DNA from: a virus
DNA length: 64,000 nucleotides
Virus record (IMG/VR): IMGVR_UViG_3300014720_000003
Coordinates: 1-64,000 of that record
Strand: one strand, 5' to 3'
Part shown: piece after piece, positions 30,011-36,362 of the stretch
How the letters are laid out: each line of letters starts with the position of its first letter
Numbering within the stretch: position 1 is the stretch's first letter
The notes under the pieces: generated by a model
Databases searched by the model: none
Told to the model about the DNA's origin: nothing
The model's input: the letters and a program-made list of their open reading frames with translations, nothing else
Made by a program: the position numbers and the translations under genes

Positions 30011-30198
30011 ATTTGTTTCTCCGTGTCTCTCGATTCTACAGTGTGGTATCGGCTTGTCAACACACAAACTTGAGCATAAAAAAGATTTTGTTTGGCACAA
30101 GGTTTGCTCGTTGCCATTTTGGCAGGCCGGCCGGCCGAGCTGCCATTTTGGCTGACTATCGCCACGACTGCCAAATCCGTAGGATTAGGAAAGACAAA

Positions 30199-30271
30199 TA
30201 GCCCCACGGAGGATCGAACTCCGATCTCCGGGATGAAAGCCCGGTATACTAAACCATTATACTATGGGGCC
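30199..30271 (-). tRNA. tRNA-Glu(TTC)
   Basis: Anticodon arm CCGGG-CTTTCAT-CCCGG. Confidence 0.92.
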
Positions 30272-30274
30272 AGA

Positions 30275-30445
30275 CTACTTATTATACTGTGGATCAACAA
30301 TCCTCTCAATCCAAATATTCTTACCAAACTTATCTTGTGCTTTTCTCATAGCATCAAACTCGCTCAATGCAACAACATAACCAGCAAACCGATTGTTGCT
30401 GAAAACACGCCAAGTATAGCCAGCATAGCAGAAAGTAGTATTCAT
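30275..30445 (-). CDS. 56-aa hypothetical protein (probably leaderless; absent from the ORF track)
   Basis: TTGACA-16-TAGAAT-6-ATG; MNTTFCYAGYTWRV... Confidence 0.6.
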   Translation of the reverse strand: MNTTFCYAGYTWRVFSNNRFAGYVVALSEFDAMRKAQDKFGKNIWIERIVDPQYNK

Positions 30446-30599
30446 GAGCGTATTCTACTATAGAGTATCGGTCTGTCAACAGAGATTCTTTACTGTCATT
30501 TTGGCAGATATCGCGGCCGGCCTGCCATTTTGGCATATTTGTTACTTATTGGTGTATATATAGTTATATCAGTAACAACTATACAAAAGGAATGCTAAA

Positions 30600-31046
30600 A
30601 TGTCTACCAAAAAAAGTTCTCGTTATGAATATCATAAACAGTGGAGAGAAAAGAATAAAGAAAAGAAAAAACTTAATGATAAAGTTTGGTATGAAGCTAA
30701 CAAAGAAAAATGTATTTTAAATAGAAAAAAATACAATGAAGCCAATAAAGAAAAAATAAAACTATATAATGAGACTAGAAGAAAAAATAACTATAACCAA
30801 TATTATTTGTTTATGAAAGATAAAAAATGTAATAGGTGTGGTTATTCTGATTATAGAGCCTTGGTTTGGCATCATATTGATCCAACTACAAAAAAATCAG
30901 ATATATCTGATATTGTGAGAGCGGGTAGGCAGTGGGAAGTTATCTTAGAAGAAATATCTAAATGTGAATGTTTATGTCAAAACTGTCACCATATAGAGCA
31001 CCATCCACACAAAAAACCCATCCGAGTTTCCTCAGATGGGTCTTAG
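30600..31046 (+). CDS. HNH endonuclease
   Basis: CNRCGY...LVWHHIDP..K...CECLCQNCHHIEH; AT-rich, opposite strand. Confidence 0.9.
   Translation: MSTKKSSRYEYHKQWREKNKEKKKLNDKVWYEANKEKCILNRKKYNEANKEKIKLYNETRRKNNYNQYYLFMKDKKCNRCGYSDYRALVWHHIDPTTKKSDISDIVRAGRQWEVILEEISKCECLCQNCHHIEHHPHKKPIRVSSDGS
31011..31041 (-). terminator. rho-independent terminator
   Basis: ACCCATCTGAG/CTCGGATGGGT plus T-run. Confidence 0.7.
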
Positions 31047-31072
31047 TAGGATAGTATTTTACTATATTTGAT

Positions 31073-31477
31073 TTACAGAAACATTCTCGCCAATCCGGTA
31101 TTGAACATAAAACTTCCAAGAAGAGGACGCCGCACATTACGGGTACGCTCCGCATAGAAGTTCCGAATCTTCCCGTCAAAAGTCTGAGCCGTAACAAGAT
31201 GCTTGCTACGCTGAAACTCAGGATCATTGCGACGATACCGACTAGTACGGTTCAGTCGAGCAATCCAATCATCAGAGAATACGCTTACGTCCAGAACCTT
31301 GGCCATAAACCGCTCACGATCACCCGTGACAGGCTGCACATACTCAAAGTTATACACACCACCAACCTTGGCGTTGGTCAGACTATCGTGAAGACCAGAA
31401 AAAAGATGAAAGCACACAAAAGCCACAACACCAGCAACCAACCCACAACCAATCGCAATCATAGTCATCGTATCCAT
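31073..31477 (-). CDS. membrane-anchored hypothetical protein
   Basis: N-terminal TM helix followed by a soluble domain. Confidence 0.7.
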   Translation of the reverse strand: MDTMTMIAIGCGLVAGVVAFVCFHLFSGLHDSLTNAKVGGVYNFEYVQPVTGDRERFMAKVLDVSVFSDDWIARLNRTSRYRRNDPEFQRSKHLVTAQTFDGKIRNFYAERTRNVRRPLLGSFMFNTGLARMFL

Positions 31478-31627
31478 AGCATTAGCCTTTCGTTTAGGAA
31501 TCTTACCTTCTTACCATACGCCGATTCTACAGTATGTTATCGGCTTGTCAAGCGGCTATCCTTGAGAAAATCTTTCTTGCCATTTTGGCAGATCGGCCGG
31601 CCCGCCTGCCATTTTGGCGGTTGTATT

Positions 31628-31733
31628 GTATGAGGCGGGAGAATCACTCCGCTTAGACCTTTATTTCAGTAAAGATGATGAGTCTTTACCTAGTCTACGT
31701 ATTCCACGGTTTTACCCGTATAGAACCTCATAT
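31628..31733 (-). ncRNA. candidate cloverleaf ncRNA
   Basis: Closing stem TATGAGG/CCTCATA with three arms. Confidence 0.55.
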
Positions 31734-31738
31734 TGTAT

Positions 31739-33522: not shown

Positions 33523-34103
33523 GATGCTTTGCTCCAAAGGATTACTGACTGTACCAAAAAACTTTTTTGACCACAACCCCCATTCTGGGGGACTACCATC
33601 CATTCTGTCGACAAGTCTCATCCCACGAATCCTGTTCACGACGCTGGCGGTCACTCATCGGCTCGTCACCCGGGCACCATTCATCTTTAGCAGCATCGTA
33701 GGCATCGTCGGAATAATCGTACGATCCAACTTCACAATGTTCGCCACAACGCGAGCAAATATCCTGAAACCGAACTTCCGCACCACAGCAATCACTCAGC
33801 ATTTTTCACTCTCCGTTTCTTTCTTTCTTTCTATATCGGATTATACGGTCTGAAACTTGAAAAGCAAACCGAAAAAAATCGGGAGAGAAAAATATTTTGT
33901 GGCACAATATTTGCTGGCGCGATTTTGGTACAAGATTTGCTAGCCTGCCATTTTGGCAGTTCGCGCGGCCGATCTGCCATTTTGGCAGTCTGGCTGACTG
34001 TCATTATGGCAGCCAGCCGATAGGATCGGCTAGAACACCCCCCTAGAGGGGTAGAGCCCCACCCCCCCCTATTGGTGGGGATACCCCCACGTACATTTGT
34101 TCA

Positions 34104-34301
34104 CTACTTAGCGTGAATGAACACCCGTTCACTCACCGTACGAGCGGTCAACGTAATGATCCAGTTATTACCGCTACCATCCTCCCGCACGATTCCGTTC
34201 ACCAATCCACAGTGAGCCTTACCCTTGGGATCAATCACTCCAACATACTTACCAGTTCGCATAGCGGAAAAAATCTTATCAAGGTTATTTGTGTTCATCA
34301 T
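34104..34301 (-). CDS. hypothetical protein
   Basis: Second gene of a tandem cassette; AAGGA RBS. Confidence 0.65.
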   Translation of the reverse strand: MMNTNNLDKIFSAMRTGKYVGVIDPKGKAHCGLVNGIVREDGSGNNWIITLTARTVSERVFIHAK

Positions 34302-34365
34302 TCTTTATTCCTTCACGGGTAGTCCCCCAACGGGGGGAGGGTTGGTCCTTCCATCCATCGGGGGG

Positions 34366-34632
34366 TCAACCCGCCCCGACACTCTCCAGCATATCGCGGC
34401 GGGTCTTACCCTCGGGCCAGTATTCGGTGACGATGCACGTGTAGTGGTGCATGTTCTCCATGTAGAACGTCTTATACTCGGTCGTGCCGTTGGGGCCGAC
34501 ACTGTGGAGAACAACCCGACGACCCTTGGGGCCGTCGACCACACTCTCCACCACGCCGACGAACAGCCGATCATCACTCTTGCGAAAGCCACAGAACGCA
34601 CGACCAACAACCACGTTATCCATTTTCATCAT
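34366..34632 (-). CDS. hypothetical protein, paralog family A
   Basis: VG.AF.GFR..D.R.FVG.VESV...PKG shared with 35750-36031. Confidence 0.75.
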   Translation of the reverse strand: MMKMDNVVVGRAFCGFRKSDDRLFVGVVESVVDGPKGRRVVLHSVGPNGTTEYKTFYMENMHHYTCIVTEYWPEGKTRRDMLESVGAG

Positions 34633-34939
34633 CCTTCAACTAGGGGTTATCTTCAACTCTGCCACGATTATACAGTAGAGTATCGGTAAAGCAAACGGAA
34701 AAAAATAGAGGAAATATTTTTGCGATTTGGCACAGGATTTGCTGTTGCCAATTTGGCAGGGATTTTGGCATGATATTTGCTGCATCTGCCATTTTGGCAG
34801 TTCGCGCGGCCGATCTGCCATTTTGGCAGCTTGGCTGACTGTCATTATGGCAGCCGATAGGATCGGCTGATACACCCCCCCTGAGAGGGGTAGAGCCCCA
34901 CCCCCCTATTGGTGGGGATACCCCCCTCGGTGGGGGCCA

Positions 34940-35137
34940 CTATTTGGTGGGGGTAGTTCCTATCCTCAACCCCTCCCCCCTTTCCAGTCTCCTGACTAGA
35001 TAATCGTAGTCGTCCGTTCTGAACAATTGAACACCATCGGTATTTTTCACGAGCCATTCCCGACAATGCCCGGTCCAACGGCTGTCGATTTGCAGATTGT
35101 GACGATTTGCGAGGATTTGTAGCGTAGCGTTGGTCAT
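34940..35137 (-). CDS. hypothetical protein
   Basis: Second gene of a cassette; TAAGGA RBS. Confidence 0.55.
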   Translation of the reverse strand: MTNATLQILANRHNLQIDSRWTGHCREWLVKNTDGVQLFRTDDYDYLVRRLERGEGLRIGTTPTK

Positions 35138-35204
35138 GATTTTTTCCTTAGGGGTTAGTCCCCCAACGGGGGGAGAGTATGATTGTTCCCGCCGTTGTCC
35201 AGAA

Positions 35205-35426
35205 TCACGAGATATCGACATTCCAGTATTCTACGTTGTCGCACTCGTCGAGATAGAGCGTAGCATACTTAGTCTGCTTCCACTCCCGATCCCAGTTTGC
35301 GACCACGATCATGATGCCACGATCACCCATGTCGCGGACCTTTTCGATCCATCCGTCGAAATACTTGCCGTCGCGGCGACGAGTGGCGAAAAACTGCTGG
35401 AGGGGCTTCGGGGTATCGGCAATCAT
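35205..35426 (-). CDS. hypothetical protein, divergent paralog family A
   Basis: RRDGKYFDGWIEKVR...G..IV....Y.T.YL. Confidence 0.65.
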   Translation of the reverse strand: MIADTPKPLQQFFATRRRDGKYFDGWIEKVRDMGDRGIMIVVANWDREWKQTKYATLYLDECDNVEYWNVDIS

Positions 35427-35749
35427 GTTTCTATCTTTCTCTGCTAGGGGTTTCATTCTCAACTCTGCCATTGTTATATCATCTAGTATCGGCAAATCAA
35501 ACGGAAAAAAACAGCGGAAATATTTTTGCGATTTGGCATGATATTTGCTAGGGCAAAAACTGTGCCGAAAAAATTTTTGCGATTTGGCATGATATTTGCT
35601 GCATCTGCCATTTTGGCAGTTCGCGCGGCCGATCTGCCATTTTGGCATGTGTCTGCCATTTGTTGTATGGCACAACATTTGCTACTGCCGTTATGGCAGT
35701 TTTCTAGCCTGCCAGTTTGGCAGATACAATATCTCCCCCGATGGGGGGT

Positions 35750-36031
35750 TCAAGCCCCCGCGGTTTCCGCGAGCAACCGGGCAACATACTGATCCCGCGT
35801 CAAGCCCGCGGGCCAATGCTTCGTTTCATTGCATGAATAGATATCCATCGTTTCAAGATAGAATGATTTGTAGATCGTCTTGACCTCTCCGTTGACCACA
35901 CTCTCGGCCGTATGCAGCACTATCAGCGTACCCTTGGGGGTAGACTTTACACTCTCCACGATTCCGACGAAATATCGACCATCGTTCCGAAAGCCCGAAA
36001 AAGCGTATCCAACCTTTACTGTATCCATCAT
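35750..36031 (-). CDS. hypothetical protein, paralog family A
   Basis: GGAG RBS; first gene of the leftward arm. Confidence 0.75.
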   Translation of the reverse strand: MMDTVKVGYAFSGFRNDGRYFVGIVESVKSTPKGTLIVLHTAESVVNGEVKTIYKSFYLETMDIYSCNETKHWPAGLTRDQYVARLLAETAGA

Positions 36032-36362
36032 TCATTCTCCGTTGAGATATCTTCCGAACTACACCCTATTCTACAGCATAGTATCGGCAAAGCAAACGGA
36101 AAAAAACAGCCGAAATATAGGTGGGGAAAACTTCATCATTCGATTATTTGGTATGATATTTGCATGGTGGGGGTTTGCACTGATCCCCCCGATAGGGGGG
36201 TGGGGGCATGGCAGGGGGTACGCTCCCCCGATAGGGGGGTTTTTCTGTTTTCTAAAGGACTGTGCGTTTTTTGCGACAAAATCGCCGGGTGGTCCAAACA
36301 CAATTCGACCACCATAAAAAAATTAGCCAGTTTCTTTTTTATCTGCTTGGCTACTATAAGAT

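Follow-up and report, generated by a model that had tools for sequence, protein, structure and literature searches.

A dense array of sigma-54-type (-24/-12) boxes was found at positions 30093-36164 of the window, that is, of the whole 64-kb stretch of DNA analyzed (64,000 nucleotides). In pattern and matrix scans, ten TGGYA-N6-TTGC boxes were strong and an eleventh was degenerate. We tentatively favor the explanation that host sigma-54 truly recognizes the boxes, which would serve as activator-dependent promoters, mostly in antisense orientation.

The strict pattern TGGCA-N6-TTGC matched 8 times in the 64-kb window, and all matches lay within 30093-35682. Dinucleotide shuffles averaged 0.49 matches and never exceeded 3, and none of 100 shuffles reached 8. 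When the variant TGGTA was permitted, two extra sites were found, at 33926 and 36149. With a weight matrix built from relatives only, the ten strong boxes scored 19.5-28.7 bits and the degenerate eleventh box 15.6 bits; the rest of the 138,480-bp genome contained no comparable box, and its best site scored 14.4 bits. The spacing scan of the region from 30 to 36.2 kb gave 8 matches at N6 and zero at all other spacings from N1 to N11, and the GG and GC (TGC) elements were exactly 10 nt apart in 10 of 10 strong boxes. A sequence-only reading of this DNA had described eleven sites with GG-N10-GC spacing here and had suggested a comparison with shuffled sequence. The scans and shuffles agreed with it, the sites it quoted were found at the positions it gave, and its eleventh site is probably the degenerate minus-strand box. 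The boxes and examples of the elements around them are as follows.

30093..30108, plus strand: sigma-54-type box TGGCACAAGGTTTGCT, 24.6 bits; 32 bp separate it from the -35 hexamer of the divergent sigma-70 promoter; dyad begins 3 nt downstream
32240..32255, minus strand: box TGGCACAGTATTTGCT, 27.0 bits; no other strong box is oriented with the genes; the sigma-70 promoter (32196-32223) of gene 31916-32173 has its -35 hexamer 16 nt downstream; the dyad 32251-32263 overlaps the -24 half of the box
33900..33915, plus strand: box TGGCACAATATTTGCT, 23.8 bits; first in a tandem pair; divergent sigma-70 -35 hexamer 31-32 bp away
33926..33941, plus strand: box TGGTACAAGATTTGCT, 23.8 bits; second in the tandem pair; dyad 33946-33958 begins 4 nt downstream
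34728..34743, plus strand: box TGGCACAGGATTTGCT, 28.7 bits; dyad 34746-34758 begins 2 nt downstream
34766..34781, plus strand: box TGGCATGATATTTGCT, 25.5 bits; dyad pair at 34787 and 34816 begins 5 nt downstream
35534..35549, plus strand: box TGGCATGATATTTGCT, 25.5 bits; first in its cassette
35552..35567 (16-bp core), minus strand: degenerate box, 20-mer TTCGGCACAGTTTTTGCCCT at 35550-35569, 15.6 bits; CGGCAC replaces TGGCAC
35585..35600, plus strand: box TGGCATGATATTTGCT, 25.5 bits; dyad pair at 35606 and 35635 begins 5 nt downstream
35668..35683, plus strand: box TGGCACAACATTTGCT, 23.9 bits; dyad 35686-35698 begins 2 nt downstream
36149..36164, plus strand: box TGGTATGATATTTGCA, 19.5 bits; last and weakest, with GC hairpins and the plus-strand terminator downstream of it
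36222..36250, plus strand: intrinsic terminator, CTCCCCCGATAGGGGGG then a T run
33946..34011, no strand: palindrome set (example), two CTGCCATTTTGGCAG dyads 29 bp apart and a third variant
33840..33868, minus strand: divergent sigma-70 early promoter (example), TTGCTT-N16-TATAAT, for gene 33593-33802
30033-30060, 34667-34695 and 36068-36096: equivalent sigma-70 early promoters

Nine strong boxes were on the plus strand, opposed to the minus-strand genes, and one (32240-32255) was on the minus strand, in agreement with the earlier count of nine sites pointing away from the local genes. Box 32240-32255 was also the only one of the ten with a gene downstream in box orientation, and a sigma-70 promoter lay in between. 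The tandem arrangement and the adjoining dyads that had been noted were both recovered: tandem pairs were present at 33900/33926, 34728/34766 and 35534/35585, and, apart from the overlap at 32240-32255, a TGCCA-N3-TGGCA-type dyad began 2-5 nt past TTGCT in six of the ten boxes. In six of the ten boxes, a palindrome centre coincided with the predicted start site.

The window comes from an uncultured lake phage, and the boxes lie between its first early genes. Along the gene strand, a cassette opens with hairpins and a double palindrome and continues with one to three boxes, an A/T-rich spacer of about 32 bp, a sigma-70 early promoter, and the gene. Each small gene has a minus-strand promoter (TTGACA-N16-TAGAAT/TATAAT) in front, and the divergent sigma-70 early promoter is 31-33 bp from the first box of each cassette (52-53 bp for box 36149). 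The palindrome set at 33946-34011 is downstream of the boxes in box orientation, and 17 of 17 exact genome copies of the CTGCCATTTTGGCAG dyad have the T4 centre on the plus strand. The stem-loops are paired 15-bp palindromes and GC hairpins, most without a T run on the gene strand. The terminator at 36222-36250, the sole strong plus-strand terminator in the block, lies past the last box and ahead of the first plus-strand gene.

This organization resembles the PeSL (promoter-early stem-loop) cassettes of the T4-type phages RB49 and phi1, which are small repeated cassettes with a strong sigma-70-like early promoter and stem-loops between small, variable genes (PMC2839356). A further likeness is that the same box-plus-leader cassette was found ahead of different, unrelated small genes in five to six relatives of our phage. 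However, the abstract of PMC2839356 does not report sigma-54 boxes for PeSLs, and the stem-loops here, unlike those of PeSLs, are only putative terminators because most lack a U run.

The boxes were also investigated in related phages. In 28 relatives, TGGCA-N(k)-TTGC gave 94 matches at k=6, compared with 0-3 at each other k from 1 to 13. The full box at GG-N10-GC spacing was kept even in relatives without TGGCA dyads, so the boxes are not by-products of these dyads, an outcome that the sequence-only reading had said would refute it; the TTTGC half, whose conservation it had left in question, was retained in relatives, including the dyad-less ones. A logo of 153 unique contexts from 80 loci showed that the extended consensus TGGCAC-N5-TTGCW was conserved as a unit, while the flanks (less than 0.3 bits) and the 5-nt spacer varied. 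At the free core positions the sigma-54 pattern was seen: TT preceded TGG, Y then R followed GGCA, AT preceded TTGC, and T/A came after it. The boxes also carried a T-rich tract ahead of GC. They clustered upstream of the terminase gene, within a single short zone: the related loci had 104 sites in 280 kb upstream and 9 in 334 kb downstream (shuffles: mean 2.9, maximum 7), and 8 of 9, 7 of 7 and 7 of 7 boxes of complete relatives were inside one zone spanning about 3.5 kb. A search of the complete relatives with the reversed pattern as control gave 0 matches. Box presence was patchy, with at least 3 boxes in only 10 of the 28 relatives and none in 6 of the 28 (10 kb examined).

Across relatives the adjoining palindromes were swapped entirely, from TGCCA-type to CGTAAG-type, while the box stayed constant, and this constancy beside changing palindromes fits a conserved host reader. 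Neighbouring genes also differed between clades in which the boxes persisted. In the TGCCA-dyad clade the box orientation bias was 64:13, and the dyad began 2-7 nt past TTGC in 39 of the 64 boxes. A co-directional sigma-70 promoter was located 37-39 nt past 14 boxes of relatives and 83-85 nt past 8 boxes. As in our phage, the last box was followed by a co-directional intrinsic terminator in at least five relatives (L217, L239, L064, L042, L209). The fixed distances may partly reflect cassette duplication or shared ancestry, not selection.

As TGGCAC-N5-TTGCW, the boxes fit the sigma-54 consensus reportedly given by Barrios in 1999. They share this consensus, the -24 GG and -12 GC elements and the 10-nt spacing with bacterial sigma-54 (RpoN) promoters such as glnAp2, pspA/pspG and nifH, and would be expected to form the same stable closed complexes requiring an AAA+ activator. 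Sigma-54 promoters are reported to require GG/TGC at -24/-12 (PMC3844500), and the boxes closely resemble ChIP-bound sites of E. coli, e.g. the pspG site (PMC4591121). The textbook order of box, short leader, ribosome-binding site and gene was seen in six relatives, in which the box was 32-49 nt before the ribosome-binding site and start codon of a small gene, with no sigma-70 promoter between box and gene. In contrast to bacterial promoters, the boxes here form phage-borne arrays (7-11 sites per 3.5-6 kb), most of them oppose the adjacent genes, a palindrome is centred on the predicted start, convergent and divergent pairs overlap, and no enhancer or activator was identified. The phage and 5 complete relatives had no match to sigma-54 (PF04552), so sigma-54 would have to come from the host. 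No true PF00158 protein, the enhancer-binding ATPase, was found in the same genomes either, the matches being RuvB-like only.

In the explanation that we favor, the boxes would be docking sites for host sigma-54 RNA polymerase inside repeated control cassettes between early genes. The sigma-54 polymerase would stand back to back with sigma-70 polymerase, nine of ten boxes facing away from the adjoining gene. If switched on, it would start at the centre of the first palindrome, its transcripts would extend into the neighbouring early gene in antisense, and the plus-strand terminator at 36222-36250 would stop them ahead of the rightward genes. Firing would depend on a host enhancer-binding ATPase because the phage encodes no activator, and since no enhancer was identified, a host activator acting from solution would suffice; activators without a DNA-binding domain are reported to fire any sigma-54 promoter in this way (PMC3844500). 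A palindrome-bound protein may gate the start site, and the net effect would be that immediate-early genes are damped according to host state. Such an antisense switch fits the orientation bias, the fixed dyad distance, the co-directional terminator and the textbook promoter cassettes of the relatives. However, some layouts are at odds with simple promoters. Among 201 unique boxes of the family, a ribosome-binding site and start codon came directly after only 6, and the predicted start site was on the foot of a terminator hairpin in some relatives. Close pairs were common: 14 of 15 convergent pairs were face-to-face 4-6 bp apart, 9 of 18 divergent pairs were back-to-back 8 bp apart, and some tandem pairs of relatives were 11 bp apart. 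Two holoenzymes would presumably be unable to share such close pairs simultaneously.

One alternative, which we consider unlikely, is that binding itself is the function and no transcript is needed. An array of poised sigma-54 closed complexes could drain host sigma-54 as a decoy while the phage genome replicates, could rival sigma-70 polymerase in occupying the shared A/T spacer, or could insulate cassette from cassette. Overlapping convergent, divergent and tandem pairs that cannot all fire would suit this function, as would boxes of consensus strength with a T-rich tract before GC, the several boxes that face dead ends or immediate terminators, the failure to find an enhancer or (in the phage and 5 complete relatives) an activator, and the variable presence in relatives, as for an accessory trait. 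Sigma-54 polymerase is also reported to occupy many sites inactively and to repress where it overlaps another promoter (PMC4591121). Inactive, intragenic and antisense sites of E. coli and Salmonella likewise oppose genes or are distant from gene starts, and are described as bound but mostly silent, and they are proposed to work through interference, repression or small RNAs; most of them lie inside genes and they are dispersed, whereas the boxes here are intergenic, clustered, and at fixed distances to promoters and palindromes (PMC4591121, PMC3844500). However, a decoy needs neither an orientation bias nor a fixed palindrome distance, the co-directional terminator past the last box implies that transcripts are made, and the box is the sole visible promoter of a gene in six relatives. 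Bound sigma-54 polymerase was reported to be no roadblock in E. coli, where only 3 of 85 genes with intragenic sites were down (p = 0.47; PMC4591121). Among the roles offered by the sequence-only reading, the roadblock is weakened by these E. coli data and the orientation bias counts against the sponge. Its assignment of the sites to the sigma-54 type is upheld by the conserved TTTGC half.

It is similarly doubtful that a phage-encoded DNA-binding protein reads the boxes, their -24/-12 likeness being convergence or mimicry and boxes and palindromes together forming early-gene operator arrays. The gaps of 4-6 bp, 8 bp and 11 bp would be easier to reconcile with a small protein than with a 450-kDa holoenzyme, and the palindrome half-site TGGCA is identical to the -24 core in the clade of the window. 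A candidate gene is at hand: the small regulator-like gene 37170-37466 (minus strand; PHROG 323, 'transcriptional regulator, D5-like', E = 5.9e-5) adjoins the box zone and is present in 54 of 80 related loci. However, this gene is also present in box-less relatives (e.g. L216 and L221), the box is asymmetric with a rigid GG-N10-GC and agrees with the universal sigma-54 consensus at each position, and it is unchanged where the palindromes are replaced, the opposite of what a co-evolving protein and site predict. It is very improbable that the boxes serve as promoters for a sigma-70-family protein of the phage itself or for some other, unrecognised polymerase. Two sigma-like phage genes were found (37573-38211 and about 110.7-111.4 kb), one matching Sigma70_r2 (E = 1e-3, below the Pfam cut-off) and the other Sigma70_r4 (E = 2.9e-12), but no boxes accompany the late and structural genes, which would be the expected targets of such a sigma, and a 16-bp two-block motif with 10-nt spacing does not match -35/-10 geometry. 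There is also little to recommend the idea that the boxes are functionless in themselves and were carried along as the cassettes duplicated and recombined. Several window boxes are indeed embedded in long, near-identical cassette copies, and shuffling is a known behaviour of promoter/stem-loop cassettes in T4-type phages (PMC2839356); against this, the core is conserved while its surroundings vary, and the boxes outlast changes of palindrome and neighbouring gene.

Pseudomonas phage YuA reportedly has a few sigma-54 promoters; a 2008 study is reported to have placed them in sense orientation ahead of genes for particles and lysis and to have examined them with an rpoN mutant, whereas the array of putative promoters here is in a predicted early region and is mostly antisense. 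Borrowing of the host sigma-54 polymerase for part of phage transcription would be common to both, putatively in our phage; YuA uses sigma-54-dependent promoters (Ceyssens 2008, cited in PMC10914365). Use of sigma-54 promoters by a phage is already known in this way, and our literature search found no paper describing such a box array, whose layout had also seemed new to phages in the sequence-only reading.

Near-perfect sigma-54 sites kept in many related phages point to a putative viral use of the host sigma-54 polymerase. A bolder reading, which we regard as quite improbable, is that the virus uses the array to trap a host sigma factor: sites of consensus strength would multiply with the replicating genome and hold the small sigma-54 pool of the cell in dead-end closed complexes. 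If this were true, the host sigma-54 stress and repair regulons would be shut down, the polymerases parked there would in addition protect the immediate-early promoters, and the array would be the first sigma-factor DNA decoy described in a virus.

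Every one of the sigma-54-type -24/-12 sites quoted in the sequence-only reading was present at its place. The strict form of the site (TGGYA-N6-TTGC, here called a box), TGGCA-N6-TTGC, had 8 matches in the window, all within 30093-35682, while dinucleotide-shuffled sequences gave a mean of 0.49 and none of 100 shuffles reached 8. TGGTA variants were found at 33926 and 36149. A weight matrix built solely from the loci of related phages detected 10 sites in the genome at 19.5-28.7 bits, all in 30091-36166, and a degenerate eleventh at 15.6 bits (scored 20-mer 35550-35569, minus strand); the best other site in the genome reached 14.4 bits. 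Nine of the strong boxes were on the plus strand and one was on the minus strand, in agreement with the earlier count of 11 sites, nine directed away from the local genes. The spacing in the window boxes was N6 alone. The observation of the box array was confirmed.

The window covers the first 64 kb of the record, a complete genome of 138,480 bp with a G+C content of 35% and direct terminal repeats, and the phage looks like a long-tailed, lytic one. In addition to the features listed here, it encodes DnaE-type polymerase pieces, DnaB, primase, RecA, RuvB and eight tRNAs.
1292-1649, minus strand: tmRNA with the tag GNNQLALAA
39717-41747: terminase large subunit
53314-65163: tape-measure protein of 3949 aa (PhageMin_Tail)
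The idea that the 3949-aa protein is a virion RNA polymerase of the N4 type, acting on hairpin promoters, was rejected because of its identity as the tape-measure protein.

The genes are encoded on the minus strand from position 1 as far as about 36 kb and on the plus strand from 36.3 kb on. The block at 22-36 kb (to 36200) has a G+C content of 41-51%, compared with 31-37% in the adjoining sequence, and consists of small minus-strand genes, each behind its own sigma-70-type promoter (TTGACA-N16-TAGAAT, minus strand). The promoter consensus of this early-cassette block (22000-36200) was TTGACA-AGCCGATA...TGTAGAAT; the four most box-rich cassettes had a weaker -35 hexamer, TTGCTT or TTGATT instead of TTGACA. 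Upstream of these promoters, CTGCCATTTTGGCAG palindromes were paired, 29 bp apart, and all 17 exact copies had the T4 centre on the plus strand. No known RNA family except tRNA-Glu was found in 29800-36500. A consensus sigma-70 promoter at 31877-31904 (minus strand) was followed by about 200 nt without a convincing ORF (31640-31904). This stretch may be a small RNA; it had no Rfam match, and its fold was not better than that of shuffled sequences (z = -0.95).

Several other genes in and beside the block were identified. A homologue of the ribosomal protein L7/L12 C-terminal domain is encoded at 26858-27214 (minus strand; E = 3.6e-9). A low-G+C HNH endonuclease gene, probably a homing element, lies amid the early cassettes on the opposite strand (30600-31046, plus; PHROG 3106, E = 3.8e-22). 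A microbial-type poly(ADP-ribose) glycohydrolase-like gene (36363-37187, plus; PF10021, E = 5.6e-15) lies between the box zone and a gene for a small basic protein (37170-37466, minus; PHROG 323, 'transcriptional regulator, D5-like', E = 5.9e-5). The glycohydrolase-like gene is apparently an accessory insertion; no tblastn counterpart turned up in 80 related loci, and the related locus L217 has different plus-strand genes there. The D5-like gene kept this position in 54 of the 80 loci, box-less relatives included, and its product is a candidate palindrome reader or switch protein. Two sigma-70-family-like genes were also found, one at 37573-38211 (plus) with a weak region 2 match and one at about 110.7-111.4 kb with a good region 4 match. 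The late genes that factors of this kind would transcribe had no boxes.

The boxes held fixed positions within the cassettes. The first box of each window cassette began 31-33 bp past the -35 hexamer of the divergent sigma-70 promoter, the last box of the window lay 52-53 bp from the divergent -35 hexamer, and the preferred box-to-promoter distances were the same across the family as in the window. In 6 of the 10 window boxes, a dyad (a palindrome of the TGCCA-N3-TGGCA type) began 2-5 nt after TTGCT. Sigma-54 promoters begin transcription some 12 nt past the GC, so the dyad centre would coincide with the predicted start site. Three more features were placed as follows.
32240-32255, minus strand: sole minus-strand strong box, 16 nt upstream of the perfect sigma-70 promoter of gene 31916-32173
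36149, plus strand: last box, followed by GC hairpins and then an intrinsic terminator
36222-36250, plus strand: that intrinsic terminator, the sole strong plus-strand one of the block, directly before the first plus-strand gene
A box followed by a close co-directional terminator was seen again in L217, L239, L064, L042 and L209, and the boundary sequence to the right of the terminator was kept between L217 and the window, though the genes beyond differ.

Relatives were collected with the terminase gene; of the 601 pattern-matching stretches that the search gave, 596 encode a relative, and the top 80 loci were retained. They form a large family of uncultured phages. In the early part of the 28 loci that were 21 kb or longer, TGGCA-N(k)-TTGC occurred 94 times at k=6 and 0-3 times at each other k from 1 to 13, and among 263 TGGCAY words in this part, 86 had TTGC at exactly the box offset. 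Upstream of the terminase gene there were 104 boxes in 280 kb, and downstream of it 9 in 334 kb; shuffled sequences averaged 2.9 and never exceeded 7. Three complete relatives had 8 of 9, 7 of 7 and 7 of 7 boxes inside a single zone of about 3.5 kb, the other two had 1 and 4 boxes, and the reversed control pattern had no match in any of the five. The distribution was patchy, with at least 3 strict boxes in 10 of 28 relatives and none in 6 (10 kb examined). In a logo of 153 unique contexts, the flanks carried less than 0.3 bits and the free core positions fitted the sigma-54 pattern, with TT before TGG and C/T then A/G after GGCA; A-T preceded TTGC, and the next base was T (71%) or A (15%).

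The possibility that the boxes are by-products of the TGGCA half-sites of the dyads, raised in the sequence-only reading, did not hold, as the full box persists in relatives lacking dyads: L218, L223 and L224 (10 kb upstream of the terminase gene) and L230 (whole locus) had no TGCCA-N3-TGGCA dyad, yet had 7-11 full boxes. In the dyad-sharing clade, 64 of 77 unique boxes had the main orientation of the window, and a dyad stood 2-7 nt after TTGC in 39 of these 64. Among 153 boxes of other clades, a CGTAAG/CTTACG-type inverted repeat took the place of the dyad in 26 and the TGCCA type in 11 more; 25 were faced by a second box and 91 had no such element. Four loci from clades without TGCCA dyads (L219, L224, L230 and L256) carried a CCTTACGATATTGTAAGG hairpin between the sense box and the sigma-70 promoter, and their double palindrome was made of CGTAAGT...ACTTACG repeats. 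The half-site has thus been swapped there and the architecture kept. Paired boxes had preferred gaps, of 4-6 bp in 14 of 15 convergent pairs, 8 bp in 9 of 18 divergent pairs and 11 bp in 4 of 14 tandem pairs.

In six relatives (L219, L224, L228, L230, L256 and L271), a small hairpin and then a purine-rich ribosome-binding site with its start codon came 32-49 nt after a box. Between those boxes and the start codons there was no sigma-70 promoter, and the leader was kept while the small genes behind it varied. A screen for gene-preceding boxes flagged 7 of 201 unique boxes, one of them apparently spurious. Upstream of a co-directional sigma-70 promoter, 14 more boxes were found at 37-39 nt and 8 at 83-85 nt. 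The arrangement suggests that boxes can act as promoters.

No match to the sigma-54 DNA-binding domain (PF04552) was found in the phage genome or in the five complete relatives. The activator ATPase domain (PF00158) gave only weak matches in these genomes, and a phage-encoded activator was rejected because all of these matches were RuvB-like proteins. The boxes limit the choice of host, which should carry rpoN; the distribution of this gene speaks against cyanobacteria and most actinobacteria. The region had no megablast match in the phage collection, and the terminase large subunit was at most about 28% identical to those of deposited phages, mostly of Bacillus and one of Microcystis. The 24 sequencing runs matching 29000-37000 were all DNA, from lake or freshwater metagenomes. 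The phage RuvB-like protein had 67-70% matches on short or phage-like contigs only, binned in Flavobacteriales, Chitinophagia and Terrimicrobiaceae MAGs, plus one unclassified 141-kb contig; these contigs are probably mis-binned phage DNA, which makes them weak host evidence. A search with the back-translated tmRNA tag found it in a small number of Chloroflexota and Planctomycetota MAGs, with an F variant in one Bacteroides MAG. No host was called from the tag, because those tmRNAs were only 42-49% identical to that of the phage.

The identity of the boxes as sigma-54-type sites is well supported by sequence comparison; their function we infer. The simplest reading, which we consider probable, is that they are read by the sigma-54 polymerase of the host, because they stay constant where the palindromes of the phages are replaced, match the universal -24/-12 consensus and keep a rigid spacing. 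Activator-dependent promoters that would fire mostly antisense, close to the enhancer-dependent antisense switch proposed earlier, are favoured by the orientation bias, by the palindrome at the start site and by the terminator downstream; the transcripts would collide, or pair, with those of the neighbouring early gene. Buck and Cannon reportedly found in 1989 that T-rich tracts at -15 to -17 give strong closed complexes that are promiscuously activated. Activation without a phage enhancer is plausible in hosts having solution-acting activators, as described in PMC3844500.

Overlapping pairs, dead ends and the patchy distribution leave room for two alternatives: non-productive binding, in which the boxes would be a decoy, competitor or insulator, much like the sponge or insulator suggested from the sequence, and a phage protein as the box reader. 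Published E. coli data speak against a simple roadblock by bound sigma-54 polymerase, also suggested earlier: of 85 genes that contain intragenic sites, only 3 were down-regulated (p = 0.47; PMC4591121). Antisense firing of host-read boxes is the reading that we prefer.

To our knowledge, sigma-54 polymerase is the only bacterial polymerase form that binds DNA and then awaits an ATP-driven signal, and we know of very few documented cases of its use by phages. Pseudomonas phage YuA uses sigma-54 (PMC10914365), repeated early promoter/stem-loop cassettes (PeSLs) are described in T4-type phages (PMC2839356), and enterobacteria have sigma-54 sites that are silent or antisense (PMC4591121 and PMC3844500). 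A literature search found no paper on sigma-54 box arrays in phage early regions. In this large, widespread lake-phage family, consensus sigma-54 sites stand at a fixed position in the first early cassettes, mostly backwards, and they are compact and portable. Their placement implies either a sensor of host state at the start of infection or the parking or draining of a host sigma factor, and either role would be a new regulatory tactic.
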